From positions 768,001 through 832,000 of the forward strand of contig CBDBOV010000006.1 in the NCBI GenBank assembly GCA_965208575.1: a stretch of DNA of 64,000 bases, in the 5' to 3' direction. The notes under the pieces were generated by a model that saw only the letters and a list, made by a program, of their open reading frames with translations, did no database searches and was not told the origin of the DNA. This document shows positions 759-54,094 of this stretch, one piece after another. The DNA is from Spirochaetia bacterium (GTDB lineage: Bacteria; Spirochaetota; Spirochaetia; SZUA-6; Bin103). The position numbers and the translations under genes are program-made. Every line of letters starts with the position of its first letter. The stretch's first letter is position 1.

Positions 759-2546
759 CTAATAGCCCATTGATTTCTTCAGCTCACTATCGATCCAGAG
801 GCGGGCCGAGACGAAATTTGGATTAACAAACGCACTCAACTCACCGTTGTAACCCTTGACCCACGGCTGGAACGCTTCAAATGACGGATTTGCCGGACCC
901 CATATGGCCCAGTGCCTCTCTACCGGATACATATCTGCCAACTTCGCCCACCGCTGCTGCTCCTCGATGGTGGTAGCGGCTGCGGCGGCTGCAAACAGGG
1001 CGTCATAGTCCGGGTCGTTCGCGGCGACACTATTGGCTGCCGCGGTGGTCAGGAAGCGGTCCGGAGCACTAAGCGGGTTAGCCAAGCTCCCATAGGCCAT
1101 TTCGTGTGACAGCATTTCGAAATCATAGTCTCTTCTCTTGGAGGCAAAAGGGCCTATCGGCGTCATCTGGACGTCGACCTCAACACCAATGTCACGCCAG
1201 TATCCGGCGAGTAGTTCATAGTAGCTCGGATCATACCGGTCCAGGACGGTATACACGCTCTTGAATCGAATCCCATCGGCGTCGCGAGGCACTCCGGCCT
1301 CATCAAGGAGCGCTTCTGCCCCTTCCGGGTCATAGTCATACGCTTTTTTCAGCTCGGCGGGCCACTCTTCAAACGGGACGAAATAGCCGATGGCAGCATC
1401 CCCTTGCTGTCCGTGAGGTGTCGTATCTCCATAACCCTTGAAGAAGACATTGTTGATCGTCTCCAGGTCCAGTGCCATCTGCATTGCCCGGCGCACCCTG
1501 ATGTCGGTAAAGGGCTCCTTGTTGATGTTGAGACCAGTAGCACCGGTCGAAGCACCGAGGTTCGTCCGCAGCTCGATTTCGGGGTTGGTCCGCTTGAGGC
1601 TCTCTGCCTGGTCGACGGACCTCAGTACACTTGCCCAACCGAGAAAGTCCACCTTGCCCGAGCGCAGTGCCGCTACCCGGGTTGCCTCTTCCGGCATGAT
1701 CGGGGCCCTTATTTCGTCAACGTAGGGTAGCCGGTTTTCCGGGTACTTTTCGTCGTAGCCCCAGTAGTCAGGATTCCTGGTATAGGTTACAACGGTGCCC
1801 TCGAGGTAGTCAGCCAGCTCGAAGGGTCCGGTGCCGACCAGGTTCCTCCAATCACTAACGTCTCCGTGTTCTCTGATTACGTCGGAGGGGTATATTTGGC
1901 CGGCGACGTCGAACAGGATAGCCCCCAGCCCATCCAGCCTGGTCTCCTGCAGCTTGAACACGACCGTCCATTTGTCGGTGGCCGTTATCGATTCCCATTT
2001 GAAGTTCTTCAAGACCCAGGCAAAGGCGCTCGGTTCGGTGAAGCCGCTGCCCGTACCCGTTACCCGGTGAAAGCTGTACTCGACGTCGTAGGCATCGAGC
2101 TCCCGACCGTTCATCGGGGCCTTGTCGTGCCAGTGAACGCCCTGGCGGATTTTCACGATAACGGTATTGATGTCGGGCTGCGACCAGCTCTCCACCAACT
2201 CCCCTTTCAGGGCAGATACCGGAGGACGCACTCTGAAGTCAAATTCGCTCCTGTCCATTCCCCAGTCCCCGGTGCCGAGCTTCTCCAATACGCCAGTGGT
2301 GAACATATGGTACCATCCCGAAAGCATGACATCAGGATTCGGACCCTCTTCATTCCAGGGCATGGTTATTGTCCCGCCATACTCTGGTGCCACCACCGGT
2401 TCGCCGGTGGTGGGGTCGGTCACATACCGCTTGTCGGCGCCGGCTGCCGGTGCCTCCTCCTCTGCGCCGGTGGCCCAGAGGCCGGTTGCGGTCAGAACCA
2501 GGACCAACGCAAGCGCGACGGTCCTGGTGCTTGCTACCAAATTCAT
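759..2546 (-). CDS. ABC transporter substrate-binding protein, family 5
   Basis: 595 aa; signal peptide ...GLWATGAEE; GVHWHDKAP, VGTGPF, NPDYW, PWVKG and RLWID motifs; RBS ggag. Confidence 0.92.
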   Translation of the reverse strand: MNLVASTRTVALALVLVLTATGLWATGAEEEAPAAGADKRYVTDPTTGEPVVAPEYGGTITMPWNEEGPNPDVMLSGWYHMFTTGVLEKLGTGDWGMDRSEFDFRVRPPVSALKGELVESWSQPDINTVIVKIRQGVHWHDKAPMNGRELDAYDVEYSFHRVTGTGSGFTEPSAFAWVLKNFKWESITATDKWTVVFKLQETRLDGLGAILFDVAGQIYPSDVIREHGDVSDWRNLVGTGPFELADYLEGTVVTYTRNPDYWGYDEKYPENRLPYVDEIRAPIMPEEATRVAALRSGKVDFLGWASVLRSVDQAESLKRTNPEIELRTNLGASTGATGLNINKEPFTDIRVRRAMQMALDLETINNVFFKGYGDTTPHGQQGDAAIGYFVPFEEWPAELKKAYDYDPEGAEALLDEAGVPRDADGIRFKSVYTVLDRYDPSYYELLAGYWRDIGVEVDVQMTPIGPFASKRRDYDFEMLSHEMAYGSLANPLSAPDRFLTTAAANSVAANDPDYDALFAAAAAATTIEEQQRWAKLADMYPVERHWAIWGPANPSFEAFQPWVKGYNGELSAFVNPNFVSARLWIDSELKKSMGY

Positions 2547-2735
2547 AGGTAACTCCGTTTGTTTGATTTCTGAGAGTATTGCGTAGCGGCTTACCGGATT
2601 ACCGCTCCCTGGCTACCCTCACGCCCGCAACGCGGGCGGCCACTGAGAGTCAACTGCGTAACGCGCGCGGCGTGTGACTCGGCCGGGTTCACGCCGCGCG
2701 CGTCCAGGGTTCCTTTAGTATCATTTTGCACCCCC
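2547..2735 (-). promoter_or_regulatory. Conserved structured 5' leader, copy A (micro-ORF plus hairpins P1-P3)
   Basis: Aligns by eye with copies at 13937-14130, 23713-23800, 33250-33432 and 48211-48402. Confidence 0.75.
2689..2724 (-). CDS. Putative leader peptide MILKEPWTRAA
   Basis: SD-like GGGGGTG upstream; synonymous third-position changes between copies. Confidence 0.45.
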   Translation of the reverse strand: MILKEPWTRAA

Positions 2736-3063
2736 GTTTCTGTGGACTTCGGCAATTCTCGGCGGGCGGTTGTCAGGGAAGGAGAGTGTCATAGTCGTTG
2801 ACGCACGTGAGCTGCACGATCACTTCTTGAAATGGAACACGATGAAAACCGATGCACAGGCATCGTCTGCCCGCCCGCCCTTTCGGACCAGGCACAGCCA
2901 TACCCAGATGTAACCGCGATTGACTGCATCCACCCCACTATGACATCCGCCCCGGTGGAGGTCAACCACGCGCATTGACTCATCAACATTGCCTACCTTG
3001 CCTACCCGACAGAGGCTGCCGGCACGAGGCCAGAATCATGACGAGCGCTATGTGGCCCCGACG

Positions 3064-12109: not shown

Positions 12110-13936
12110 CTAAAAACCCATTGCTTCCTTCATCTCCTGGTCAATCCAGATGCGGGCTAAGTGTTTGTGTCCCTCGGAATAAGATCCCAGTTCGCCGTTA
12201 TAACCTTTGACCCACGGCTGCGTTGCCTGGTACTGGGGGGTTTCAGGCCCCACTATCTTGAAATGCTGTTCTGTGATGTACATGTTTATTTCTTTTGCCA
12301 GCCTATGCATCTCCTCGATGGTGGTAGCGGCCATGACGGCGTCAGCCATGGCGTCATATTTGGGGTCGTTCAAGTGGCCGGTGCTGAGATTGCCTTTATA
12401 GAATTGATTTGTCAGACGGTCGGGGATACCATACCTGAAGGCCGCTTCCCCCCAACGAATTATGTACCTGTCCTGATCTGGATCATTATACATCGCGGTG
12501 ACTTCGGCTGACCCACCAGCCAAGACATCAGTCTGCGTGTCCACGCCAATCTCGCGCCAGTATCCGGCGACCAATTGCGCATAGCTCACATCGTACCGTT
12601 CGAAGTAGCCCATGCTCATCGTGAACCTGATACCGTCGGCGCCGCGCGGATAACCGGCCGCATCAAGCAACGCTTCGGCTCCCTCCGGGTCATACCTGTA
12701 GGTTTTCTTGACCGCTTCGGGCCACTCCTCGAATGGCGTGCCAATGCCCGGCACATCATTGGCGAAATGTCCCTGCGGAGTCGCATCGCCATAACCCTTG
12801 AAGTAGGTAGCTACAATGGTCTCGAGGTCCAGTGCCATCTGCAGTGCCTGGCGCACGCGGAGGTCATTCAAGGGCGGTATGTCCATACGGACGATATAGA
12901 ATGCGTTATCGGACCGAAACTTGAACGACCACAGCTTGATTTCCGGGTCGGTCCGCTGCAGGCTCTCTATCTGGTCGATCGACCTTAATGTACTGGCGCC
13001 GGGACCTAGCATATCAACCTTACCCGTGCGCAGAGCCGCGAGACGGGTTGCTGACTCCGCCATCCGCAAGGCCCTTATCTCGTCAGCATAGGGCAGACGG
13101 TTCTCCGGGTATTTTTCGTCGAACCCCCAGTAGTTGGGAGTCTTGGTCCAGGTCCTGGAGCTACCTTCGACCACCTCCGTCAGCTCATAGGGTCCGGTGC
13201 CGACCGTGTTCCGCCAATCCTGATAGTCGCCGTGTTGCTCGATGACCTCCGGAGGCATTACCGTAGCCGATCCACCCCAGCCGTAGCCGATAAAGAGTTT
13301 CACGGCGCTGAGGTTTGGCCTCTCCAGCTTGACGACCATCGTATACTTGTCGGTGGCCGTTACCGATTCGATCGGCAAAGCTACGAGGTTACGTGCCGCT
13401 GGGGTAGGTTCGGCTTCACTGAACGCGGTCCCTGCCAACTTGTTCCCCAAATAGCGGTGAAAGTTGTATTCTACGTCCTCGGCGGTGAGCTCCCGGCCGT
13501 TCATCGGCGCCTTGTCATGCCAGTGAACGCCCCTGCGGATGTTGAAGATAATGGTGGTATCGTCGGGCGTTTCCCAGCTTTCCGCCAGTGCCCCTCCTAT
13601 GGCCCATGCAGGTGTCTCTGCGAAGATCCGCCAGTTCCAGACGTCCCTGTCGTTTCCCCAGTCCCACATGGCGAGCTGCTCGTTAACCAAGCCGGTGCTG
13701 TCTTTCGCGTGGCCGTACCAGTCATCAACGTTGGTGCCCCAACTGACCAGGCCGTAGGTTAGTGTCCCGCCATACCGCGGCGCCTCCACCATCTCGCCGG
13801 TGGTCGGGTCGAGCACCATTTCCTTCTCGGCGGCGGCTGCCGGCTCCTCGTCTGCGCCCGCGGCCCAGAGGCCGGTTGCGGTCAGAACCAGGACCACCGC
13901 AACCGCGAAGGTCCTCGCAACTTGTACAATAAGCAT
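12110..13936 (-). CDS. ABC substrate-binding protein, family 5
   Basis: Start reassigned to MLIVQ (13936) by RBS ggag and paralog alignment; family-5 motifs. Confidence 0.92.
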   Translation of the reverse strand: MLIVQVARTFAVAVVLVLTATGLWAAGADEEPAAAAEKEMVLDPTTGEMVEAPRYGGTLTYGLVSWGTNVDDWYGHAKDSTGLVNEQLAMWDWGNDRDVWNWRIFAETPAWAIGGALAESWETPDDTTIIFNIRRGVHWHDKAPMNGRELTAEDVEYNFHRYLGNKLAGTAFSEAEPTPAARNLVALPIESVTATDKYTMVVKLERPNLSAVKLFIGYGWGGSATVMPPEVIEQHGDYQDWRNTVGTGPYELTEVVEGSSRTWTKTPNYWGFDEKYPENRLPYADEIRALRMAESATRLAALRTGKVDMLGPGASTLRSIDQIESLQRTDPEIKLWSFKFRSDNAFYIVRMDIPPLNDLRVRQALQMALDLETIVATYFKGYGDATPQGHFANDVPGIGTPFEEWPEAVKKTYRYDPEGAEALLDAAGYPRGADGIRFTMSMGYFERYDVSYAQLVAGYWREIGVDTQTDVLAGGSAEVTAMYNDPDQDRYIIRWGEAAFRYGIPDRLTNQFYKGNLSTGHLNDPKYDAMADAVMAATTIEEMHRLAKEINMYITEQHFKIVGPETPQYQATQPWVKGYNGELGSYSEGHKHLARIWIDQEMKEAMGF

Positions 13937-14130
13937 GCGTAACTCCATATATGGATTTCTTGAGAGTATTACGAAGCGACTTGTCGCTCCCTGGCTACTC
14001 TCACGCCGGCAACGCAGGCGGCCAGTCAGAGTCCAACTCACTAACAGCGCGCGGCGGGTGACTCACCGGGTTCACCCGGGCTCACGCCGCGCGCGCGTGC
14101 GGTTCTTTCAGTATCATCCTGCACCCTTGG
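13937..14130 (-). promoter_or_regulatory. Conserved structured 5' leader, copy B (micro-ORF MILKEPHARAA at 14082-14117)
   Basis: P1 about 14047-14094, P2 14004-14020, P3 13962-14002. Confidence 0.75.
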
Positions 14131-14335
14131 GGTGAGGCCGCCGTAGGAGGCGGCGCAAGGTCACGCCGGGGGCGCCAGTATCGCGAGGCGTCTCGGGACC
14201 GGCTCGGCGACTCGAAAGGGCCGGCGCCACCAATAGCTGCGGCGACTGCGGCGGTGGTAAACGCGACGGCGTGCGCGGGGCTGCGCACGCCGCGGTCATC
14301 CGGAGCGGGTAGCTGTTTCTCGTATAAAGAGTTAC

Positions 14336-17969: not shown

Positions 17970-19763
17970 TCAGCGCCGCACCTCGTCGCAGAACACCAGC
18001 TCCCAGCCGTGGAACACCACGACCAGGCCGATGAAGGTCACCCCCGGAAACTGCCGCGCCAGCCGCTCATCCGCCAGGTAGCGCTCGAGCTGCGCCGTCG
18101 CCTCTCCGGCCGCCGCCGCCACGCCGGCGTCGTCCGCCGGCCCGCTGCGCTGCAAGCGCCCACGCCGCTTGAGGTACTTGAGCTCGATCAGGTAGCCGCG
18201 CTGCAGGTGCGGATAGCGCGCCACCAGCGGCTCGAGCGCGATGTCCGCGTGTCCCTTTCCCAGTTCCGCCTCCGACCGGAACACGTAGTGGTCGGTCACG
18301 CTCAGATAGGCGGCGAGGAATCCTAAAGCCCCGGTACGGGGCTCAAGCACCTTCTCGCCACTGATGTAGTCGCGTATTCCGGTCTGCCGGGAGATCGCCT
18401 CGCTCAGGAACTCCAGTACCGGTCGCCACCCGCCCTCGTTGGCCATCCGCATCATCAACTGCTCAAACCGGAACAGGTTTACTGAAAACACCCCCACGTC
18501 GCGGTAGGCGTCGCGCAGAAACCCGTACATCAGCCGCTTCACGGTCTGGTTCGGGATCGCCAGCCGGGGCACCCGCTCCACCACGTCGCGGATGCTCAGC
18601 AGTCCGAAGTAGTGCAGCAGGGAGAAGAAGTTCTCCTGCTTGGTGAGGTCCTTCAGCGGAAAGCCGGGCTGGATGCGGGTGTCCACCTGCTCCTCGCCGA
18701 TCAAGTCCCTCAGCAGGTCGAAGTTGCCGTTGAGCTGCCGCCCGGTCACCAGCAGGTGACGCAGCTTGCCGTAGTCGATGCGCACGTTGGTGTCGATCAG
18801 TTCATCCGGCACCTCTCGGTTGGGAATCGAGTTGTCCAGGTAATACAGCACCATGTCGGTGTTGTAGAGATCGGTCTCGGCTGCCTTGGCGAAGCGGTAG
18901 CCGTTGTACCATTCGCCCATGATGCCCATGGCGGTCTCGACCTTCTGGTTGAACACGCCCAGGCCGCGGTACGTGTCGACCAGGTGCCGGACCTCCGCCT
19001 CGGTGAAGCCGACCATCTCGTTGAAGTCCGGGTGCAGGCTGATGTTCTTGCCGATGTTGAAGCCGCTGGTGACGTCGTCCATCGTGATCGGCGATACGCC
19101 GGTGATGAACAGCCGTTCCAGCCCGCCGCCGCTGCGCCCCGCCCCGGACTTGAGGGTGGCGAAGAAGTTGCGATAGAAGCCGCCGCCGTGGGTGAACGAG
19201 TGGTACGCCTCGGCGCCGTGGTACGCCAGCACGGTGTTGGCGAAGTTGTCGTACTCGTCGATGATCACGTACAGCGGGATGTCGTGGTCGCCGGCGTACC
19301 GGAACAACACCCCGAGCTTGGCGCTAATGGAGGGCCGCGTGAGGATGCGCTGCACCGCCGCGTCGGGAAACAGGTCGGGATGCCGCTCCAGCGTCCCCTG
19401 CAGCTCCGTGTGGCAGTAGATCTCGAACTCCCGCTCCAGGGTTTCCAGCTTGTCGTTGACGGTTGAAAAGTCGAAGCGCAGGGTGACGTAGCGGCTCTGT
19501 TCCCCGGTCGGGTCTCCGCCGATGTCGGTGCCGGCGAAGGTGGCGTCGAAGCCTTCCGCCCAGAAGCGGTCGTAGTAGTTCTCCAAGATCGACGCCCAGA
19601 GGGACTTGCCGAAGCGGCGCGGGCGGATCAGGAAGGCGTAGCGCTCCTCCTCGAGGCGGCGCAGGAAGCGGGTCTTGTCGACGTACAGCCACCGGTTCAG
19701 GCGGATGCGCCTGAAGTCGGCCTCGCCGTAGGGAATGCGCGGGTGCGTGGGTGGCGTTCTCAC
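17970..19763 (-). CDS. AAA-ATPase-like plus PD-(D/E)XK nuclease protein
   Basis: IPYGEADF, RPRRFGKS, IIDEYD, GHADI...IELKY; paralog of 45768..47528. Confidence 0.9.
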   Translation of the reverse strand: MRTPPTHPRIPYGEADFRRIRLNRWLYVDKTRFLRRLEEERYAFLIRPRRFGKSLWASILENYYDRFWAEGFDATFAGTDIGGDPTGEQSRYVTLRFDFSTVNDKLETLEREFEIYCHTELQGTLERHPDLFPDAAVQRILTRPSISAKLGVLFRYAGDHDIPLYVIIDEYDNFANTVLAYHGAEAYHSFTHGGGFYRNFFATLKSGAGRSGGGLERLFITGVSPITMDDVTSGFNIGKNISLHPDFNEMVGFTEAEVRHLVDTYRGLGVFNQKVETAMGIMGEWYNGYRFAKAAETDLYNTDMVLYYLDNSIPNREVPDELIDTNVRIDYGKLRHLLVTGRQLNGNFDLLRDLIGEEQVDTRIQPGFPLKDLTKQENFFSLLHYFGLLSIRDVVERVPRLAIPNQTVKRLMYGFLRDAYRDVGVFSVNLFRFEQLMMRMANEGGWRPVLEFLSEAISRQTGIRDYISGEKVLEPRTGALGFLAAYLSVTDHYVFRSEAELGKGHADIALEPLVARYPHLQRGYLIELKYLKRRGRLQRSGPADDAGVAAAAGEATAQLERYLADERLARQFPGVTFIGLVVVFHGWELVFCDEVRR

Positions 19764-21912: not shown

Positions 21913-23712
21913 CTAATTCCCCATCGTTGCTTGCTTCAGCTCACTATCAATCCAGAGGCGGGCCAAGAAGGTATTACGTTCACCACGTCCCATACCTGCT
22001 TCACCGAAATAACCCTCGACCCACGGCTGGCTCACGTGGAACTTGGGGGCGTTGGATTTGACCAGACCCCAGTGCTCCCTTATCGTGATCTCATCGACCT
22101 GTCGATGCAAGCTCTTCCACTCCTCCAGGGTGGTGGCAGCTTGCATGGCGGCAAACAGGGCGTCAGTTACCGGGTCGTTCCCCTTCGCCTTGTTCTTTTG
22201 GTGTTGTTGAGTCAGGTAACCGGCGCCGCCGAGTATCCCATATGCCCAATCCCCTAACGCCCACTCGTGCGTGTCCGCGCCATGTATAGCGGAAATCTCA
22301 GCGGCAGTATGGGCAAAAAGCTCGCTGTCAACTCCAATGGCTTCGAAGTACCCCATGACGATTTCACCATACGTCGGATCGTACCGGTCGAAATGGGAGA
22401 TCTTGAGCTTGAATCGATAGCCATCGGCGCCGCGCGGATATCCAGCCGCATCAAGCAACGCTTCCGCGTCATCCGGGTGATACTCATACTCATGCTTGAC
22501 CTCGTCGGGCCACTCTTCATATGGCCAGGAAAACTCCCCTGGGCCATCTTGCTGTACTAACCCATACGGTGCTGGATCTCCCCAACCCTTAAGGAAGGTG
22601 GCGGAAATCGTCTCGCGGTCCACTGCCATCTGCAGTGCCTTGCGCACATCGACGTCGCTAGTGGGTGACAAAGCCCAGTTAAAAAAGTATGCGCCCGCTA
22701 TCCAGCTATAAACGGGCCACACCTCGATTTCAGGGTTGGTCCGCTGGAGGCTCTCCAAATCGTCGATATTGTATATGACAGCGTCGCCGGTGTTACTCAG
22801 CATATCAATCTTTCCCGTGCGCATTGCCGCCAGACGTGCTGACATGTCCGGTATCAGCAAGGACCTCAATTCGTCAATATAGGGTAGGCGGTTTTCCGGG
22901 AATTTTTCGTCGTAACCCCAGTAGTCAGGATTCTTCTCCCAGGTTGCCGAGCTGCCCTCCACGAAATCAGTCAGTCGAAAGGGCCCGGTGCCGACCACGT
23001 TCCGCCAATCCTTGGCGTCGCCGTATTTCTCGATTTGCTCAGGGGCGTGCGCAACCCAGTAGTTGTTGAGCATTTTCCCCAGCCCATCGGGGTGAGACTG
23101 CTTCAGCTTGATCTCAACCGTCCATTGGTCGGTGGCCGTTACCGATTCGAACTGTAGACCGAAGAAGATAACACCCGCACTGGGGCTAGGTCCGTCTTCC
23201 GTGAAATCGCCCAGACCCAAATAGCGGTGATAGTTCCATTCGACGTCATGGGCATCGAACTCCCGACCGTTCACCGGCGCCTTGTCATGCCAGTGAACGC
23301 CCTGGCGGATGTTCCAGATGAACGTTGTGTCGTCGGGCATTGACCAGCTTTCAGCCAGAGCCCCTGTAGTCATCTCCGGGGTCACAATGCGGGAGTCTCT
23401 ACCGCCCCATATATCCCTGGTGAGTCCCCAGTCGGCGAAGGACAGCCCCTCATTGACGCCACTGATCACGTGAGCCGCCCAGCCAGGTTTCCACCAGTTG
23501 TCAATACCGGGAGGAAAGACAACAACGCCCTGCGTGATTGTCCCGCCATACTGTGGCGCGGTCCACGTCATGCCGGTGGCGGGGTCGAACACCGTTTCCT
23601 TCTCGGTAGCCGCCGCCGGCTCCTCTACTGCGGCAGCGGCCCAGAGGCCGGTGGCGGTCAGGACCATGACCAACGCAACCGCGAAGGTCCTGGTGATTGT
23701 TACCATATTCAT
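21913..23712 (-). CDS. ABC substrate-binding protein, family 5
   Basis: 599 aa; family motifs; close paralog of 31438..33249. Confidence 0.92.
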   Translation of the reverse strand: MNMVTITRTFAVALVMVLTATGLWAAAAVEEPAAATEKETVFDPATGMTWTAPQYGGTITQGVVVFPPGIDNWWKPGWAAHVISGVNEGLSFADWGLTRDIWGGRDSRIVTPEMTTGALAESWSMPDDTTFIWNIRQGVHWHDKAPVNGREFDAHDVEWNYHRYLGLGDFTEDGPSPSAGVIFFGLQFESVTATDQWTVEIKLKQSHPDGLGKMLNNYWVAHAPEQIEKYGDAKDWRNVVGTGPFRLTDFVEGSSATWEKNPDYWGYDEKFPENRLPYIDELRSLLIPDMSARLAAMRTGKIDMLSNTGDAVIYNIDDLESLQRTNPEIEVWPVYSWIAGAYFFNWALSPTSDVDVRKALQMAVDRETISATFLKGWGDPAPYGLVQQDGPGEFSWPYEEWPDEVKHEYEYHPDDAEALLDAAGYPRGADGYRFKLKISHFDRYDPTYGEIVMGYFEAIGVDSELFAHTAAEISAIHGADTHEWALGDWAYGILGGAGYLTQQHQKNKAKGNDPVTDALFAAMQAATTLEEWKSLHRQVDEITIREHWGLVKSNAPKFHVSQPWVEGYFGEAGMGRGERNTFLARLWIDSELKQATMGN

Positions 23713-31437: not shown

Positions 31438-33249
31438 CTAATTCCCCATCGTTGCTTGCTTCAGCTCACTATCAATCCAGAGGCGGGCCAGGTGGGTATT
31501 ACGTTCGCCGTTTCCCATCCCTGCTTCACCGAAATATCCCTGCACCCATGGCTGGCTCACGGAGAACCAGGGGGAGCTGGATTTAACGAGGGCCCAGTGC
31601 TCCCTTACCGTGATCTCATCGGCCTGCCTGATAAGACTCTTGAACTCCTCAAGGTCGGTGGTCTCGATGGCGGCAAGATGCAGGGCGTCGATACGCGGGT
31701 CCGTCGCCTTGTTGTGGCTTCTCCCATCAAAGCTCTGGCTTATCCATGTCAGGTTGGTTCCGCTGCTGCCAAACCAGCCATAATAACTGGCCACAAACTC
31801 ATACTCGTGCGTGTCCGCATTCAACAAAGCCCCTGACTCAGCGCTAGTCTGTATAAACAGCTCGCTGTCAACGCCAATGGCATCCAGGTACCCCATGACG
31901 AGTTCCGGATAGGTCGGCTCGTACCTGCTGAACTGGGCAATCTCGACCTTGAATCTATAGCCGTCGTCGCCGCGCGGATATCCGGCCGCATCAAGGAGTT
32001 CCTCGGCCTTTTCAGGATTATAGGTATATTCTTGCTTGACCTCGTCGGGCCACTCTGCATATGGCCAGGACCACCCGGTAGAACTTTGATGTACGTACCC
32101 ATAAGGTGCTGGATCTCCCAACCCCTTGAAGTAGGTAGCGGAGATTGTCTCTCGGTCCACTGCCATCTGCAGTGCCTTGCGCACATTGAGGTCGGCAGTT
32201 ATGGCAGGCGAGGCCACGTTCATGTACAAAACACCCGATGCAGGGTTGTAAACCGGCCACACGTCGATTTCAGGGCTGGTCTTCTGGAGGCTCTCCAAAT
32301 CGTCGATAGATGTAATATACGCGTCGCCGACGTTACCCATCATGTCAACCTTACCCGTGCGCAGTGCCGCCAGACGTGCTGACATGTCCGGCATAAGGAG
32401 GGACCTCAACTCATCAATATAGGGTAGGCGGTTGTCCGGGAATTTTTCGTCGTAGCCCCAGTAGTCAGGATTCTTCTGCCAGGTTGCCGAGCTACCCTCC
32501 ACGAATTCTGTCAGTCTCCAGGGCCCGGTGCCGACCAGGTTTCTCCAGTTCTTGGCATCGCCGTACTCCTCGATTTGCTCAGGGGCGTGCACAAAAAAGT
32601 AGCCGTTGAGAAATTTCCCGAGCACATCGAGGTGAGGCTTCGTCAGCTTAATCTCAACCGTCCATTGGTCGGTGGCCGTTACCGATTCGATACCTACACC
32701 GCCGACGACCGCACCGACCGCGGCGTTCGGTCCGTCTTCGGTGAAATCGCCCAGACCGAAATAGCGGTGAAAGTTCCATTCGACGTCATCGGCATCGAAC
32801 TGCCGACCGTTCATCGGCGCCTTGTCATGCCAGTGAACGCCCTGGCGGATGTTCCAGATAAACGTTGTGTCGTCGGGCATTGACCAGCTTTCAGCCAGAG
32901 CCCCGGTAGTCATCTCCGGGGTCACAACGGAGTAAATTCTACCGTTCCATATGTCCCTGGATAGTCCCCAGTCGGCGAATGCGAGCCTTTCAACAACGCC
33001 ACCGATGAGGTGAGGCGCCCAGCCAAGATTCCACCAGTTGTCAGTACTCGGAGGAAAGACCGTAACGGCCGACGTGAGTGTCCCGCCATACTGTGGCGCG
33101 GTCCACGTCATGCCGGTGGCGGGGTCGAACACCGTTTCCTTCTCGGTAGCCGCCGCCGGCGCCTCTTCTGCGCCAGCGGCCCAGAGGCCGGTGGCGGTCA
33201 GAACGAGGACCAGTGCAACCACGAAGGTGGTGACTGTTACAATATTCAT
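31438..33249 (-). CDS. ABC substrate-binding protein, family 5
   Basis: 603 aa intact; paralog of 21913..23712. Confidence 0.92.
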   Translation of the reverse strand: MNIVTVTTFVVALVLVLTATGLWAAGAEEAPAAATEKETVFDPATGMTWTAPQYGGTLTSAVTVFPPSTDNWWNLGWAPHLIGGVVERLAFADWGLSRDIWNGRIYSVVTPEMTTGALAESWSMPDDTTFIWNIRQGVHWHDKAPMNGRQFDADDVEWNFHRYFGLGDFTEDGPNAAVGAVVGGVGIESVTATDQWTVEIKLTKPHLDVLGKFLNGYFFVHAPEQIEEYGDAKNWRNLVGTGPWRLTEFVEGSSATWQKNPDYWGYDEKFPDNRLPYIDELRSLLMPDMSARLAALRTGKVDMMGNVGDAYITSIDDLESLQKTSPEIDVWPVYNPASGVLYMNVASPAITADLNVRKALQMAVDRETISATYFKGLGDPAPYGYVHQSSTGWSWPYAEWPDEVKQEYTYNPEKAEELLDAAGYPRGDDGYRFKVEIAQFSRYEPTYPELVMGYLDAIGVDSELFIQTSAESGALLNADTHEYEFVASYYGWFGSSGTNLTWISQSFDGRSHNKATDPRIDALHLAAIETTDLEEFKSLIRQADEITVREHWALVKSSSPWFSVSQPWVQGYFGEAGMGNGERNTHLARLWIDSELKQATMGN

Positions 33250-33503
33250 ACGTAACTCCGTAGCTGATTTCTGAGAGTATTGCGTAGCGCCGTGCCGCTC
33301 CCTGGCTACTCTCGCGCCCGCAACGCGGGCGGCCGGCCAGACAGAGTCGAATTTGTGAAGCGCGCGGCGTGGGACTCACCGGGTACACGCCGCGCGCGCG
33401 TGCGGTTCTTTCAGTATCATCCTGCACCCTTGGGGCGCGGCCGCCGGAGGACACGGCGAACCCCAGTGAACCGTATGCTCACACGCGCGGGCAAACGTGT
33501 CAA
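33250..33503 (-). promoter_or_regulatory. Leader copy D: promoter, micro-ORF MILKEPHARAACTR (33376-33420) and P1-P3 (poly-C module absent)
   Basis: Alignment with copies A, B and E; TTGACA-N17-GAGCAT. Confidence 0.75.
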
Positions 33504-47528: not shown

Positions 47529-47655
47529 TACCGTACCGTACTGACTCTATCGCCTCCAAGGTGCGACGCGCAATCGAGCCGCCAAGGGCGGCACGGTCAC
47601 TCTGCGAAACGGACGACGACGGCCGGTCGGTTGCGTCCGCCGAGTCCGCGCGCGC

Positions 47656-47793
47656 TTGACACCTCCAGGCGCGCGTGAAACGATGACTACGTCAAGGATT
47701 GAACGGATGTGGATCATGAGTCATCACGACCGACTGCATAGTAACCGGTCGGCAGTGACGCAGCCGGCGCATCCCCCCCCCCCCCCCCCCCCC
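47656..47793 (+). promoter_or_regulatory. Upstream promoter module with C21 homopolymer
   Basis: TTGACA-N17-AACGAT; poly-C 47773-47793. Confidence 0.6.
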
Positions 47794-48210
47794 GGGTCGG
47801 GCGGACAACTACTTGAATCACAAGCAATAATCGCTCAGGCTGAGCGCTCTGCGGCCTTCGTCTTCAGCTTCCGCGTAGCGGCCCGCTACCTGTTGTGCCG
47901 CCTCAGTCCACGTTCGCTCACCGGCCGCGGCAACGGTCAGGGACCCCCGTCCGCTGAACCGCGGCATCTTTTCCCGTCGCGCTGCTCGAAATTCCTCAAA
48001 TGCGCGCTCCAACGCACTCGACCCGCCCTCCGGGCGCAGTGTCCGAGCCGCGTCCTGGTGGCGTGGATTCTCCACCGCCCGGCTACTCAAGGAACGCGTG
48101 GCCGAACATACCCCCATCTACGCCTCACCGCTTCTACGCAGGCTACGCTGCCTGACTCCGGGACCTCATGGGTCGCGAGCAAACACCCTGCCGGCGTTCC
48201 CGGCGCACGC

Positions 48211-48402
48211 GAGGTGCGAGTCATACTCAAAGAACCACTCCCGCGCGCGGCGTGAGCCCGGGTGAACCCGGTGAGTCACACGCCGCGCGCTTCAGGAAGT
48301 TGACTCTTATCTGGCTGGCCGCCTGCGTTGCGGGCGCGAGAGTAGCCACGGAGCGACAAGTCGCTCCCCAATACTCTCAACATTCCATCGAAGGAAGACA
48401 CG
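48211..48402 (+). promoter_or_regulatory. Conserved structured 5' leader, copy E
   Basis: (V)ILKEPLPRAA* ending 48255; P1 48243-48290; P2 48320-48336; P3 48338-48378. Confidence 0.75.
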
Positions 48403-50208
48403 ATGAAGATATTCTTCACCCGGACTTTCGCGGTTGCGGTAGTCCTGGTGCTGACCGCAACCGGCCTCTGGGCCGCCGGCGCAGAAGAGGCGCCGGCAGC
48501 CGCCGCCGACAAGCAGTATGTGACCGACCCCACCACCGGCAAGGTGGTGTCCGCGCCAGAGTATGGCGGGACAATAACCTACGCGCTATCAACAGACCTT
48601 CCGGGACCTGACACCGTGCTCACTGGTGGAGCGGCGGCTCACTCCGCCGGTCCCGTTGTAGAGAAGCTGGGCGCCGCAGACTGGGCAGCTCCCAGGGACA
48701 TGTTCTCGTTCAACATCTATGAACTCAATATTCCTGCTAACACGAGAGGGGTGCTGGCGGAGAGCTGGTCGCAACCCGACCCACTGACGTATATCATCAA
48801 AGTCCGCCAGGGCGTTCACTGGCATGATAAGGCACCGATGAACGGCCGGGAGCTGACTGCCGAGGATGTCGAGTACAACTTTCATCGTATGGTGGGTATA
48901 GGTAGCGGTTTCACCGAGAAGAGCCCTATGGCTTATAGCTTCCGAGCTGGGGAATTCGACTCGATAACGGCCACCGACCAATCGACGGTTGTTTTTAGGA
49001 TGAACAAGCCCCGCCTCAGTGCGCTGGCTTCTATCCTCGACGACTGGTCTGCCTGGATATATCCCCCCGAGGTGATCAAGGAACACGGGGATGTTTCGGA
49101 TTGGAGAAACCTCGTCGGAACCGGACCCATGATGATGACTGGCTGGACCAAAGACAGCTCTCGCACCTATGAGAGGAATCCGGACTACTGGGGCTACGAC
49201 GAGAAATACCCCGAGAACCGCTTGCCCTACATTGACCGGCTGAGGGGCCTGGTTATGCCCGAAGTCGCAACACGAACGGCTGCACTGCGCTCGGGTCAGG
49301 TTGATTACGTAGGTGCGCTCGGCTTAACTTCATTGAGGAATCTCGACCAGGTAGAGAGCCTCCAGCGCACCAACCCCGAAATCCTGATATCGTCGTATAC
49401 GTTTCGGAATGATGGTGCTGTTGGGTTGAACGTTCAGCTAGAGCCCTTTGACGACATCAGAGTGCGCAAGGCCATGCAGATGGCAATAAACCTCGATGAA
49501 ATCAACAATTCCTACTTTGGAGGGTTTGGAGATACGACGCCTCAGGGGAAGGTAAGCAGGTCTTATACAGCGGCTGTCACCCAATTCGAAGATTGGCCCG
49601 AAGATGTCAAGAAGGTCTTTGACTACGACCCGGAAGGTGCCGAAGCGTTGCTTGATGAGGCCGGTTATCCTCGCGGCGCCGACGGTATCAGATTCAAGAC
49701 CAGGTTCTTGCATCTCGAGCGGTACGATTTGAACTATACGCAATTGATCACTTCATACTGGAACAAGATTGGCATCGATGTAGTAGACATTGCGGTAGAA
49801 CCATCACCTGCATTTGGCGCCAGAAGAACTGCCAAGGATTACGAACTGATCAATCACGAGTTGGCCAACTATGGGGATCCCATAAACCACATGACGCATT
49901 ATTCGAATCGGGAGAGCAACCCATACGGGGCGCATTCCAATGTCAACGACCCCGATTATGAGGCCATGCTTGAGGCTGCCGAAGCCGCTACCACTATTGA
50001 GGAGCAGCACAGGTTAGTTCGAGAGTTGAATCAATATGGGATTGAGAAGTTCTGGATGATATGGACTCCTAATGGTCCACAATTCAACGCGATCCAACCG
50101 TGGATCATAGGTTTCAACAACGAAAACTGGATGGGTAACGGTCAAGTCCTGGTAGTGTTCACCCGTCTGTGGATTGACCAGGATCTGAAGACGGAGATGG
50201 GTTATTAG
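48403..50208 (+). CDS. ABC substrate-binding protein, family 5
   Basis: 601 aa; LWAAGAEE signal; family motifs. Confidence 0.92.
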   Translation: MKIFFTRTFAVAVVLVLTATGLWAAGAEEAPAAAADKQYVTDPTTGKVVSAPEYGGTITYALSTDLPGPDTVLTGGAAAHSAGPVVEKLGAADWAAPRDMFSFNIYELNIPANTRGVLAESWSQPDPLTYIIKVRQGVHWHDKAPMNGRELTAEDVEYNFHRMVGIGSGFTEKSPMAYSFRAGEFDSITATDQSTVVFRMNKPRLSALASILDDWSAWIYPPEVIKEHGDVSDWRNLVGTGPMMMTGWTKDSSRTYERNPDYWGYDEKYPENRLPYIDRLRGLVMPEVATRTAALRSGQVDYVGALGLTSLRNLDQVESLQRTNPEILISSYTFRNDGAVGLNVQLEPFDDIRVRKAMQMAINLDEINNSYFGGFGDTTPQGKVSRSYTAAVTQFEDWPEDVKKVFDYDPEGAEALLDEAGYPRGADGIRFKTRFLHLERYDLNYTQLITSYWNKIGIDVVDIAVEPSPAFGARRTAKDYELINHELANYGDPINHMTHYSNRESNPYGAHSNVNDPDYEAMLEAAEAATTIEEQHRLVRELNQYGIEKFWMIWTPNGPQFNAIQPWIIGFNNENWMGNGQVLVVFTRLWIDQDLKTEMGY

Positions 50209-50316: not shown

Positions 50317-51279
50317 ATGAGAGCCTATATCATTAGGCGGTTGTTGCTGATCGTGCCGACGCTGTTCATTTTGAGCATCCTGGTCTTTCTCTCGGTACGC
50401 TTCATCCCCGGCGATGTCATCGACGTCCTGATCGGCAGGATGGCAACGTTCAATGTGCAATGGGACGTAGACCGTGAAGCTCTCGAGCGAATGCTGGGAT
50501 TGGACGTGCCTGTCTACGTGCAGTATGGACGCTGGATAGGAGGTATCATCCTGGACGGCAGCCTTGGCGAATCCCTGTTTACCAGAGACTCGGTGGAACA
50601 GGCGATATTGGAGAGACTGCCGGTCACCCTTGAGCTCGGTTTCATGGCAATCTTCATCGGGCTCGTGATCGCGCTGCCGGTGGGCATCTACTCGGCGATG
50701 CGCCAGGATACCGCAGCCGACTTCCTGGGGCGCTCGGTCGCCATCATCGGTCTGGCCACGCCGAACTTCTGGCTCGGCATCATGGTCATGATCTACCCGA
50801 CCATCTGGTGGGGCTGGGCGCCGCCGCTGGAGCTGGTTACTTTTCCAGAAGACCCGCTGGGCAATCTGGCGGTGTTCATCATTCCCAGCCTGATTCTGGG
50901 TACCGCCGCGGCTGCCGGCACCATGCGGATGACGCGCACCATGATGCTGGAGGTGCTGAGGCAGGATTATGTCAGGACGGCTTGGTCGAAGGGTCTGAAG
51001 GAGCGTGTGGTCGTCATGCGCCACGCGGTCAAGAACGCACTCATCCCGGTGGTGTCGCTGATCGGCCTGCAGTTGCCGATCCTGGTGGGGGGCGCCGTGA
51101 TCATGGAGAACATCTTCAACCTGCCGGGCCTCGGCCGTCTCTTGCTGAGTGCCCTCAATGAGCGAGACTATCCGATGGTCTCCGGAATCAACCTGTTTTT
51201 CGCCGCTGGGGTGGTGGTGATCAATCTGCTCATCGACGTGCTCTACGCGATCCTCGATCCCCGGGTCCGCTATGACTGA
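50317..51279 (+). CDS. ABC permease, DppB-like
   Basis: Standard motifs. Confidence 0.92.
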   Translation: MRAYIIRRLLLIVPTLFILSILVFLSVRFIPGDVIDVLIGRMATFNVQWDVDREALERMLGLDVPVYVQYGRWIGGIILDGSLGESLFTRDSVEQAILERLPVTLELGFMAIFIGLVIALPVGIYSAMRQDTAADFLGRSVAIIGLATPNFWLGIMVMIYPTIWWGWAPPLELVTFPEDPLGNLAVFIIPSLILGTAAAAGTMRMTRTMMLEVLRQDYVRTAWSKGLKERVVVMRHAVKNALIPVVSLIGLQLPILVGGAVIMENIFNLPGLGRLLLSALNERDYPMVSGINLFFAAGVVVINLLIDVLYAILDPRVRYD

Positions 51280-51354
51280 GTTGTTTCACACGCTGGTCAA
51301 AGCGAAGCCGTGGAGCGTCATCGCCGGGCTGGTCGTCAATGCCCTGGGGGCGCT

Positions 51355-52230
51355 ATGACTGAATTCCTTACAAGGCTGGTCAAGGAGAAGCCACTGAGCA
51401 TCGTCGCCGGGGTGGTCATCATGTTGTTGATCCTGGTGGCGATCTTTGCCGATGTTCTGGCCCCGTACCCGCATGACGAAGTCAACATCGTGGACCGGAT
51501 GCAGCCGCCCTCCAACCGGTATCTGTTGGGCACCGACCAGTTGGGGCGCGACCTGCTCAGCCGCCTCGTGTTCGGCGCCCGGATTTCGCTGACCGTCGGC
51601 TTGGCGGCGACCACGGTCAACGTCGTGGTGGCGGTGCTGATCGGCGGCATCTCGGGATTCTTCGGCGGCAGACTGGACCTGGCGATGCAGCGCTTCGTCG
51701 ACGCCTGGATGGCGTTCCCGGGCCTGCTGCTGTTGCTCACCATCATGTCGCTGGTGGGGCGGGGGCTGCCGCAGATCATCGTGGTGCTGGGGGTAACGGG
51801 CGGCATCGGCGGCTCGCGAGTGGTCCGCGGCGCGGTGATCGGCGTCAAGGAGAATGCCTACTTTCAGGCGGCCGAGGCGATCGGCGGCACCCGGTGGAGA
51901 ACCCTGATCCATCACGTCCTGCCCAACATCGCGGCTCCGGTGATCATCATCTTCACCATCAACGTGGGTGGCGTGATCATCAGCGAGGCTGCGCTGAGCT
52001 TCCTGGGATTCGGGCTGCCGATCTCGGTGCCGAGCTGGGGCGGGATGCTGAGCCGGGAAGGGCGCGAGTTCATGGAGGTGGCGCCGCGGCTGGCGCTGTG
52101 GCCGGGGCTGTGCCTGACGATTGTCGTGTACTGCCTGAACATGTTCGGCGACGCGGTGCGCGACCTGCTCGACCCGCGGCTGCGGGGCGGCGGCGGCCGT
52201 CTCGGCGCCGATCGCGCTGCGTCAGTGTAG
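51355..52230 (+). CDS. ABC permease, DppC-like
   Basis: Start MTEFLTRLVKEKPL by paralog alignment. Confidence 0.92.
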   Translation: MTEFLTRLVKEKPLSIVAGVVIMLLILVAIFADVLAPYPHDEVNIVDRMQPPSNRYLLGTDQLGRDLLSRLVFGARISLTVGLAATTVNVVVAVLIGGISGFFGGRLDLAMQRFVDAWMAFPGLLLLLTIMSLVGRGLPQIIVVLGVTGGIGGSRVVRGAVIGVKENAYFQAAEAIGGTRWRTLIHHVLPNIAAPVIIIFTINVGGVIISEAALSFLGFGLPISVPSWGGMLSREGREFMEVAPRLALWPGLCLTIVVYCLNMFGDAVRDLLDPRLRGGGGRLGADRAASV

Positions 52231-52546: not shown

Positions 52547-54094
52547 ATGACGCGACGACGGCTGCCCATCGGCATCCAGACCTTCCGCGAGTTGCGCGAA
52601 GAGGACTGCTACTACGTGGACAAGACCGGCTACATCGATCGGCTGCGCCACGAAGGCAAGCATTATTTCCTGTCGCGCCCGCGGCGGTTCGGCAAGAGCC
52701 TGTTCCTGGACACGCTGAAGGAGCTGTTCGAAGGCAGCGAGGAGCTGTTCGCGGGGCTCTACATACACGACCGCCACGACTGGTCGGAGCGCCATCCGGT
52801 GGTGCGGCTGAGTTTCGGCGGCAGCAGCTTCACGGAGCCCGCACATCTGCACGCCAACGTGCTGGCGCAGTTGGAGGGGGCGGCGGAAGAGCACGGTGTG
52901 AACGTGCGCTACGCCACTGCGCCGGAGCGGTTCGCGCATCTGCTCAGGACTGTGCACGCACGCGCCGGGCAGCGCGTGGTGGTGCTTGTCGACGAGTATG
53001 ACAAGCCGATCCTGGACGCGCTGGAGACGCCGGAGGTGGCGCGCGCCAACCGCGGCTATCTGCGCGGGCTGTACGGCGTGATCAAGGACAGCGACGCGCA
53101 CGTGCGGTTCGCGTTTCTCACGGGCATCAGCAAGTTCTCGAAAGTCAATCTCTTTTCGCAACTGAACAACCTCACCGACATCACGCTGGATCCGGTGTAC
53201 TCCTCGATCTGCGGCTACACGGAGGGTGACCTGGAGACGGTGTTCGCCCCGGAACTGGCCGGCCTGGATCGAGAGCGGGTACGCGAGTGGTACAATGGCT
53301 ATAGTTGGCTGGGCACGGAGAAGGTGTACAACCCGTACGACGTGCTGCTGCTGTTTCGCCGCCGCAAGTTCGCCGCCCACTGGTTCGAAACCGGGACGCC
53401 GGCGTTTCTGGTGGACACGCTGTTTCAGCGACGGGTGGCGTCGGTGTCACTGGACCAGAAGGTGAGCACGGAGGAACTGCTGTCGACGTTCGACGTAGAC
53501 CGAATCGGCACCGAGGCGTTACTGTTCCAGACTGGCTACCTGACGATTACGGGGGAAGAGGAACTGGGCGGGGAGGCGCTGTATCGGCTGGGCTATCCGA
53601 ACCGGGAGGTGCGGCAGAGTCTGAACCGGGTGCTGCTACGCCATCTCGTGCAGGACGCGGAGGGGCAGACGGCCAACAGCATCCGCCTGGCGCGACTGCT
53701 GGATGCGCACGACTGCACCGGCCTGAAGGAACTGTTCCACGCCTTCTTCGCGAGCATTCCGTATCAGTGGTACACGAACAACCACATCGCCGACTACGAG
53801 GGCTTCTACGCGAGCGTGTTCTACTCCTACTTCGCCGCGCTGGGGTATGAGATCGCGGTGGAGGAATCGAGCAGCCACGGGCGGCTGGACATGGCGGTGC
53901 GCACGAGCGGGCACGTGTACCTGTTCGAGTTCAAGGTGGTGGAGATGGCGCCGCCGGGGTCTGCGTTGGCGCAACTCCAGAGCCGGGACTACGCGGCCAA
54001 GTACCGTCACTTGAACGAACCGATCCACCTGGTCGCCGTGGAGTTCAGCCGCGAGACGCGCAACGTGACGGCGTTCGAGGTGGCCGACGGCTGA
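52547..54094 (+). CDS. AAA-ATPase-like plus PD-(D/E)XK nuclease protein
   Basis: 515 aa; paralog of 3064..4704 without the insertion. Confidence 0.9.
   Translation: MTRRRLPIGIQTFRELREEDCYYVDKTGYIDRLRHEGKHYFLSRPRRFGKSLFLDTLKELFEGSEELFAGLYIHDRHDWSERHPVVRLSFGGSSFTEPAHLHANVLAQLEGAAEEHGVNVRYATAPERFAHLLRTVHARAGQRVVVLVDEYDKPILDALETPEVARANRGYLRGLYGVIKDSDAHVRFAFLTGISKFSKVNLFSQLNNLTDITLDPVYSSICGYTEGDLETVFAPELAGLDRERVREWYNGYSWLGTEKVYNPYDVLLLFRRRKFAAHWFETGTPAFLVDTLFQRRVASVSLDQKVSTEELLSTFDVDRIGTEALLFQTGYLTITGEEELGGEALYRLGYPNREVRQSLNRVLLRHLVQDAEGQTANSIRLARLLDAHDCTGLKELFHAFFASIPYQWYTNNHIADYEGFYASVFYSYFAALGYEIAVEESSSHGRLDMAVRTSGHVYLFEFKVVEMAPPGSALAQLQSRDYAAKYRHLNEPIHLVAVEFSRETRNVTAFEVADG

Follow-up and report, generated by a model that had tools for sequence, protein, structure and literature searches.

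A structured 5′ leader with a putative leader peptide precedes dozens of substrate-binding protein operons in one genus of Spirochaetia

In the trp, his, leu and pyrBI attenuators a translated leader open reading frame (ORF) overlaps a stable hairpin, in translation attenuation of the erm/cat type a ribosome on the leader remodels the structure that occludes the main ribosome-binding site (RBS), and in the TnaC system a stalled ribosome governs the fate of the transcript via Rho and rut, with the Rho loading site beside the stop codon. According to the respective reports, release of the leader peptide at UGA by RF2 is inhibited in TnaC-tnaA (PMC8450073), and PepNL, the 14-residue leader of E. 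coli pepN, arrests at its UGA stop codon, around which stem-loops are predicted, with an arrest that appears not to affect the stem masking the Shine-Dalgarno (SD) sequence (PMC11890864). Similarly, the structured 5′ leader of toiL-topAI is described as containing an upstream ORF (uORF) on which the position of the ribosome is proposed to remodel the RNA (PMC12121999), and a screen in S. meliloti describes uORFs that act by coupling or RBS occlusion (PMC13285730). Here, we analysed a 64,000-nucleotide stretch of the genome of a Spirochaetia bacterium (contig CBDBOV010000006.1, positions 768,001 to 832,000; hereafter the window), in which five copies (A to E) of an element precede genes for substrate-binding proteins (SBPs). 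The element appears to be a lineage-specific, apparently undescribed cis-acting 5′ leader of SBP/permease operon mRNAs, and we judged PepNL-pepN to be the closest published architecture, with TnaC also near.

An initial annotation of the window, made from the sequence alone, had reported these five copies as a conserved, structured leader in the sense orientation of strongly diverged SBP genes. A covariance model (R1, see below) placed all five at about the positions reported, copies A to D on the minus strand of the window and copy E on the plus strand, each in sense to an ORF of about 600 residues that matches Pfam SBP_bac_5 (E-values 6e-57 to 1e-62). Copy C, which had been described as partial, is covered by R1 at model positions 101-168 only, corresponding to the helices P2 and P3. 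When re-aligned in the sense orientation, the five copies were alignable from ~190 nt upstream through the start of the ORF, and the SBPs are indeed diverged, with an amino-acid identity of 45-54%, except for the pair C-D (73%). A profile built from the five window copies (nhmmer) identified 62 leader copies (E-values 2e-6 to 3e-68) in the window's own genome (G000; 6.5 Mb, 6 contigs, 67-68% G+C), and the iterated search converged at 63 matches, the added one being a weak 72-nt fragment. Overall, 61 of the 62 copies directly precede an SBP-family ORF and share its strand, which bears out the proposed tie to a large SBP family. The sole exception is an orphan partial copy consisting of the uORF and the helix P1 only (C3:636953-637088(-)), downstream of which no SBP-family ORF was found. 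Within G000, the leader was carried by 57 of 112 close SBP paralogs (>=450 bits against a profile of the five SBPs); it was also found with 3 of 23 ORFs of intermediate relatedness and with 1 of 60 distantly related ORFs. The SBP_bac_5 subfamily itself is strongly expanded in this genome, with 112 ORFs at or above 450 bits and 195 ORFs matching the five-SBP profile at E<=1e-5.

Conservation begins sharply ~190 nt ahead of the SBP ATG. In the 47 of 62 copies that had both the anchors and an ORF of full length, the median identity of the leader was 0.787, compared to 0.596 for the nucleotides of the coding sequence (CDS), 0.526 for third codon positions and 0.472 for the protein (1081 pairs), with the leader ahead in 97% of the pairs. 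The conserved 5′ module also reaches into the CDS, namely into the signal-peptide region (SBP codons 8-24; e.g. window 48424-48474), and the third positions of SBP codons 8-14 have a major-allele frequency of 0.80-0.98 versus ~0.65 elsewhere in the CDS. These values bear on the possibility that the element has no function of its own and is passively co-duplicated upstream sequence, a repeat resembling repetitive extragenic palindromes (REP) or miniature inverted-repeat transposable elements (MITE), or a DNA palindromic operator. Such an origin would fit the multi-copy state of the element and the long GC-rich palindrome of P1, which gives weak antisense hits with R1, but conservation of the leader far exceeds that seen at third codon positions in the adjoining genes. 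Furthermore, the random orientation and context that the initial annotation had named as the mark of a REP/MITE was not observed, as 61 of 62 copies in G000 and all 24 copies fetched from other genomes were in sense and immediately upstream of an SBP-family ORF.

The helices P1, P2 and P3 are as had been described, and single-sequence folds gave them as autonomous stable hairpins preceded by an unstructured 5′ end. The helices were specified by hand on an alignment (A3) of 49 of the 51 well-anchored G000 copies, from which L062 (long insert) and L081 (identical to L080) were excluded; a further 11 copies with poor anchors had already been set aside. The hand-specified structure was paired in 89.3% of the cells of A3, compared to 32-51% with the partner slid, and 19 pairs showed double-sided changes versus 7.2 in shuffles. 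R1 was built from A3, and its 103 matches (98 distinct) from loci of G000 and related genomes formed a second alignment (A4), in which some noise comes from partial matches and from a single weak match in antisense (window 48157-48324). In A4, P1, its inner hairpin P1b, P2 and P3 were paired in 93.3% of cells compared to 32-61% with the partner slid, double-sided changes occurred in 29 of 38 pairs (in P3 in all 14 of 14), and 87 double-change cells were counted compared to 15.2 in shuffled and 11-31 in slid controls. In this alignment, double-sided changes exceeded both kinds of control, and the compensatory changes noticed in the initial annotation (agcgA/Tcgct in copies B and E versus agcgG/Ccgct, and gagGgta in copy A) are visible in the alignments. 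RNAalifold recovered 16 pairs only on A3, and all-against-all covariation scans of A3 were of no use: the first score mainly reflected C/U changes facing an invariant G, and the second scan contained few double changes because the stems hardly vary within the genome. Within the helices, G·U outnumbered A·C by roughly 3:1 (179 versus 62), which argues for pairing in the sense RNA and not for a DNA palindrome. Together with the excess of double-sided changes and the coding signature of the uORF (see below), this largely refutes an element without function, which we consider highly improbable. The loops, bulges and linkers (GUU, UGAGUCA, UUGACUC, GCCAGGGA) were conserved as strongly as the stems.

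The initial annotation had outlined the body of the element correctly and overlooked its 5′ edge, where an SD and an 11-codon uORF that ends in P1 vary with codon periodicity. The edge consists of a strong SD (AGGAGGUG), a spacer of 5-7 nt and NUG, followed by AUA CUC AAA GAA CCG CAC GCG CGC GCG GCG UGA; the SD-like GGAGG lies 5-7 nt ahead of the start, and a 16S 3′-end-like motif containing CCUCC (GGATCACCTCCTTT) is present in the genome. The consensus of the 11 codons reads MILKEPHARAA (I or V at position 2), and the last five sense codons together with the UGA stop are the 5′ arm of P1. In G000, ATG, GTG or TTG was found at the start position in 46 of 58 anchored copies and a length of 11 residues in 41 of 58. 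Similar proportions were obtained for a wider set of 93 distinct copies, with ATG, GTG or TTG at one fixed column in 75, a peptide of 11 residues in 66 and a TGA stop in 76. Departures from the consensus, counted in 90 distinct copies, were 58 synonymous to 64 non-synonymous (48% synonymous) in the uORF frame, compared to 15:80 and 13:81 (14-16%) in the out-of-frame controls and an expectation of 11/54 synonymous for random single-base changes. The L-K-E-P codons showed 55 synonymous and 19 non-synonymous departures, and K-E-P alone 33 and 6. At the sequence level, the uORF therefore has the marks of a translated frame whose peptide is under selection, L-K-E-P especially. Reading the GATACT inside the uORF as a -10 promoter box is disfavoured, since its second base is G in 10-12 copies, 0 of 58 copies have a strict sigma-70 pattern inside the leader and the period-3 signal fits coding instead. 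A derivation of the uORF and P1 from SBP coding DNA also failed, with chance matches of 12-13 nt only. The tetrapeptide LKEP occurs inside 19 of 112 SBP paralogs (residues ~175-225), and no nucleotide similarity was found between these SBP-internal regions and the uORF.

We favour, with moderate confidence, the explanation that the element is a translated leader-peptide and structured-RNA cis-regulator of SBP/permease operons, in which the dwell of a ribosome at the end of the uORF sets the state of P1 and thereby the fate of the mRNA. Transcription would begin upstream of the element, as promoter-like motifs suggest, and the strong SD would bring ribosomes to the leader ORF M-I/V-L-K-E-P-H-A-R-A-A, whose last five codons and UGA make up the 5′ arm of P1, as read directly from the sequence. 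A ribosome completing the uORF would have to melt P1, freeing the P1 3′ arm and the GAGUCA bulge in the meantime; in constrained folds, about 23-34 kcal/mol, the cost of P1, is needed to hold the uORF end and P1 5′ arm unpaired. Depending on the nascent peptide, the ribosome may then pause or arrest at or near the UGA, as suggested by the selection on the peptide and on L-K-E-P in particular, so that the state of P1 would report translation. This state could in turn set the downstream fate of the mRNA through its stability, through access for Rho or RNase, or through a tertiary contact with the RBS-proximal P3.

Evidence on transcription came from promoter-like motifs and RNA libraries. In 14 of 58 copies, the 250 nt ahead of the uORF contained a strict sigma-70-like motif (TTGACN, 16-18 nt, nAnnnT), compared to 3 of 58 on the antisense strand, 0 of 58 within the leader itself and 35 of 2000 windows taken at random; the sole promoter-like site near copy E lies ~390 nt upstream. 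Short contigs of the P1 region were present in four metatranscriptome runs, with loose ends that read into the uORF codons, and two RNA-library contigs (48316-48456 and 48319-48425) link P2 and P3 to the CDS. Upstream of 48220 no RNA contig was found in any of the four runs, an absence that carries no weight because this region is not conserved and the contigs stem from paralogs or relatives. One subfamily of ~10 G000 copies (including C4:509083, C4:524712, C4:563811, C6:953163 and C4:541277) has in common, ~130 nt ahead of the uORF, the stretch ...CCCTGTCAACGC...GCATGACTCGG..GCCGCCGTGGGTCGC...TTCGACGTATGACTCTTCCATTCACAAC..., which precedes a small GCCGG/CCGGC hairpin and could be a promoter region or more leader.

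Of the traits of a termination-arrest leader, those visible in sequence, a short ORF with a selected peptide and a UGA end, were found here (55:19 in L-K-E-P, TGA in 76/93). Similar to PepNL, the leader ORF is very short (14 residues in PepNL, 11 here) and ends in UGA, and, as with the SD-masking stem of PepNL, the modelled RBS accessibility does not change here (see below). Unlike PepNL, to which it has no sequence similarity, the present leader has an arrest that is putative, and one leader family stands before dozens of paralogous operons per genome and is followed by P2 and P3. TnaC also has a short leader ORF with a UGA stop, but it is 24 residues long and responds to a defined inducer (Trp), whereas the stop examined here sits in a GC-rich hairpin with no C-rich unstructured stretch after it. 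The trp, his, leu and pyrBI attenuators share with this element a leader ORF that overlaps a stable hairpin, and the translated ORF is found here as a sequence signature; they differ in that MILKEPHARAA contains no regulatory codon run and that no antiterminator alternative and no U-tract were seen. P1 is followed by CUUCAC or GUCAC, with at most 2-3 U, and no intrinsic terminator was found on the plus strand in a scan of 47600-48500. The lack of a U-tract does not support a classical terminator-attenuator, one form of the switch put forward in the initial annotation. Like toiL-topAI and the erm/cat leaders, the element combines a uORF with a structured 5′ leader, but those leaders occlude the main RBS, whereas masking of the uORF end did not alter how accessible the SBP RBS is predicted to be. 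The upstream SD and start codon inside the 5′ leader also resemble the S. meliloti uORFs, which overlap or abut the main RBS, in contrast to the uORF of copy E, whose stop is ~147 nt before the SBP start (48255 versus 48403) across a structured interval. The element is thus of a known kind, a leader peptide with a structured leader, and what is new is the family, the layout of a stop within a hairpin followed by two hairpins, and the copy number.

The conserved helices with double-sided changes and the strongly conserved unpaired nucleotides would also suit a metabolite or second-messenger riboswitch, in which P1 with a GAGUC x GACUC pseudoknot (PK1), P2 and P3 form an aptamer for one global ligand over the whole SBP family. 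PK1 had been proposed in the initial annotation and was complementary in 84.5% of A4 cells, with 12 double-change cells versus 3.5 in shuffles, which makes the pseudoknot possible on sequence grounds and its covariation weak. The riboswitch would be a new class, as no Rfam 15 family matched the whole 64-kb window at gathering thresholds, the leader families gave no match to the element, and the element alone at E<=10 matched only mir-3017, in antisense and at 19.8 bits compared to a gathering score of 51 (E=0.2); the earlier view that this is no known riboswitch class accordingly still stands. However, P1 is overlapped by the SD and a uORF with a coding signature, the three hairpins are serial and thermodynamically independent without a multi-helix junction, and the modules occur apart (P2 and P3 alone, or a P3-like hairpin alone). 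None of the alternative pairings tested as an expression platform covaried, and the element is limited to one genus among the genomes searched, whereas riboswitch classes are usually broad. The SD and codon-periodic uORF ending in P1 make a leader-peptide device likelier than a pure metabolite riboswitch; the riboswitch reading is less likely than the leader-peptide reading and taken by itself appears quite unlikely to us. Of the riboswitch- or attenuator-like switch first suggested, the structured cis-acting leader has held up and the switching has found no support: no alternative pairing tested covaries, and an SD with a coding-signature uORF was found.

Of 10 further genomes of the genus, 7 contain the element according to R1, and deeper scoring gave 43, 34, 85 and 6 copies in G001, G003, G005 and G007, respectively. 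Together with G000 and G006, these genomes supply more than 230 copies. R1 gave 0 hits in 37 other genomes of the order and one weak hit among 13 genomes of the sister genus (G014/L096, 23 bits), which was rejected as spurious because it lies inside a 655-residue SBP-like ORF encoding ...FHLKEPDPRF... (L096 1501-1666). The element is thus confined to one genus within the genomes searched. SBP homologs were also found on contigs of metagenome-assembled genomes labelled Dehalococcoidia, Tectimicrobiota, Acidobacteriota and others, and the leader was present at 13 of 80 SBP homolog loci, always in sense and just upstream. Full-strength copies precede SBP homologs at L183 (JAKZSW010000151.1, 6.5 kb, with Candidatus Tectimicrobiota in its title; 176 bits) and at L139 (JAPPLW010000016.1, 132 bits). 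The contigs are short and were assigned to other taxa or to taxa without a name, which points to horizontal transfer or mis-binning.

Within G000, the presence of the leader required at least 26 state changes on a fast tree (FastTree) of the 112 paralogs, on which this figure rests, compared to 37.5 ± 2.8 with shuffled labels (minimum 29). In addition, an SBP-E ortholog of 88% identity in a congener (L118, OZ253572.1:4880109-4884902) differs from SBP-E at the N-terminus and is preceded by unrelated sequence (compared with window 48050-48450), a difference that indicates a gain, loss or swap of the 5′ module. Both observations point to frequent loss of the module or its relocation through recombination. 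Of the 55 close paralogs that do not carry the main leader, 26 resemble one another upstream and form a second leader class, of which a subgroup carries a P3-like hairpin (GAGAGUG...CACUCUC-GAA) 15-25 nt before the SD, without uORF, P1 and P2. Smaller clusters of 6 and 4 were also defined by upstream similarity in this set. The element is built of modules, of which P3 is the most widespread.

A constitutive 5′ stabiliser and translation enhancer would account for much of this without any sensing: the SD and ribosome near the 5′ end and the three hairpins would block 5′-end-dependent decay and keep SBP output high, similar to ompA-type 5′ hairpins and STAB-SD elements. P1 to P3 are autonomous stable hairpins, the ground state leaves the SBP RBS unsequestered, none of the alternative structures tested covaried, SBPs head permease operons, which fits a need for excess SBP, and the module is often swapped, gained or lost (the state changes and the leaderless ortholog above). 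A mere ribosome-loading site would, however, not need the amino-acid-level conservation of L-K-E-P (55:19), nor would simple protective hairpins need loops, bulges and linkers conserved to the level of stems, and we therefore regard this explanation as unlikely. The same conserved loop and bulge sequences, kept across paralogs at 47% protein identity, could alternatively be read by a trans-acting RNA-binding protein or small RNA docking on the element and co-regulating ~60 operons, with the uORF as an accessory. The number of copies is of the order expected for a regulon and an RBS-adjacent P3-like hairpin is common to the second leader class, as such a platform would have it, but it leaves the codon-periodic variation of the uORF unexplained, and no candidate regulator turned up, in an analysis that included no search aimed at one. 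We assign a low probability to this platform, and it is compatible with, not exclusive of, the leader-peptide explanation.

Several points weigh against the leader-peptide explanation itself. Translation of the uORF in vivo and ribosome pausing are what we infer from the sequence, and 18 of 93 distinct copies have no ATG, GTG or TTG at the start column, among them copy E (GTC), which has an in-frame GTG at 48214, 6 nt upstream of the GTC, and is an atypical, possibly decayed copy. The sequences are close kin within one genus, the double-change counts are cells and not independent events, and A4 is aligned to the structure of R1 itself. None of the rearrangements considered was supported in A4: the alternative pairing GACUCU x AGAGU, proposed earlier as the switch, did not covary beyond shuffles, UACUC of the uORF with the P3 5′ arm did not covary, and a further candidate, PKa (CUGGC x GCCAG), was complementary in 89% of cells, yet no better than shuffles. 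A P4 hairpin around the SBP SD/AUG was likewise rejected, being present in 24 of 47 copies (51%) compared to 55% of shuffled-upstream controls. In nested folds of 37 of the 47 anchored copies, the unpaired probability of the SBP SD/AUG was 0.45 when free and 0.47 with the uORF end masked, masking raised accessibility in 4 and lowered it in 2 of the 37 copies, and P2 and P3 did not change; an RBS-unmasking switch of the erm/cat type is therefore not supported. Copies with P2 and P3 only exist (window copy C and L084), and together with the P3-only second class they suggest that the uORF/P1 module is dispensable for some paralogs. Finally, the contigs from the RNA runs are consistent with the whole element being on mRNA but are weak evidence for it, since they may contain carried-over DNA and derive from paralogs or relatives.

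A bolder form of the leader-peptide explanation, which we put forward tentatively, would make MILKEPHARAA a new sensory arrest peptide that stalls at the UGA inside P1 on a cellular or host-derived cue and switches 35-85 ABC (ATP-binding cassette) import operons of the peptide/opine type per genome together. Recombination would have carried the leader and the signal-peptide codons from paralog to paralog as a portable 5′ module. To our knowledge, no comparably large set of operons has been placed under one leader peptide. A search of full-text literature, with a coverage that excludes most subscription journals, returned no description of such a leader.

The positions of the leader parts and adjoining genes are collected in Table 1. 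In the window, the SBP genes are followed by two Opp/Dpp-type permease genes. The ORFs after the permease pairs of operons E and C (52547-54094(+) and 17970-19763(-)) match AAA-ATPase_like and PDDEXK_9 and are not ABC ATPases, and no ABC ATPase gene was seen among the scanned ORFs adjoining these operons.

Table 1 Coordinates of the leader copies, their parts and associated genes (window positions unless a contig is given).
Feature	Position	Strand	Remarks
Small hairpin GCCGG-CGTTC-CCGGC, copy E	48190-48204	+	Sequence and upstream alignments; present in one subfamily of copies, not all
Leader, copy E	48206-48380	+	By covariance model R1
SD-like GAGGTG of the uORF, copy E	48211-48216	+	Family consensus AGGAGGTG
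uORF frame (V)ILKEPLPRAA*, copy E	48220-48255	+	Stop TGA 48253-48255; GTC replaces the usual ATG
P1, copy E	48243-48290	+	Outer stem gcgcgcggcgtg (48243-48254) x cacgccgcgcgc (48279-48290)
Inner hairpin P1b, copy E	48257-48271	+	Within P1
P1 bulge TGAGTCA, copy E	48272-48278	+	Within P1
Linker TGACTC, copy E	48301-48306	+	Complementary to P1 bulge GAGTCA; candidate pseudoknot PK1
P2, cgcctgc-gtt-gcgggcg, copy E	48320-48336	+	Double-sided changes in 5/7 pairs
P3, copy E	48338-48378	+	Outer stem gagagta (48338-48344) x tactctc (48372-48378)
P3 inner stem-loop ggagcga-caag-tcgctcc, copy E	48350-48367	+	Within P3
SBP-E, 601 residues, SBP_bac_5	48403-50208	+	Own SD-like AGGA at 48392-48395
Opp/Dpp-type permease genes after SBP-E	50317-51279 and 51310-52230	+	ORF scan
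Leader, copy A	2570-2738	-	uORF 2689-2724(-), MILKEPWTRAA*; SBP-A 759-2546(-)
Leader, copy B	13960-14131	-	uORF 14082-14117(-), MILKEPHARAA*; SBP-B 12110-13936(-)
Copy C, partial: P2 and P3, without uORF and P1	23737-23804	-	R1 model positions 101-168; SBP-C 21913-23712(-)
Leader, copy D, P1b deleted	33271-33434	-	SBP-D 31438-33249(-)
uORF of copy D, MILKEPHARAACTR*	33376-33420	-	Stop is the TGA of the TGAGTC bulge
Example SBPs of the second leader class	C5:886100-887911(+), C5:371942-373936(-), C3:135964-138042(+)		G000

The new covariance model can be used for genome annotation, and the element is a candidate portable expression module. With 34-85 natural variants per copy-rich genome, the family is also a ready-made mutational series for a short nascent peptide combined with an mRNA hairpin. 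The lineage is uncultured, with RNA runs of its relatives labelled sponge metagenome, and the regulon of over 50 importers that the leader marks out in it bears on how such bacteria coordinate nutrient uptake.

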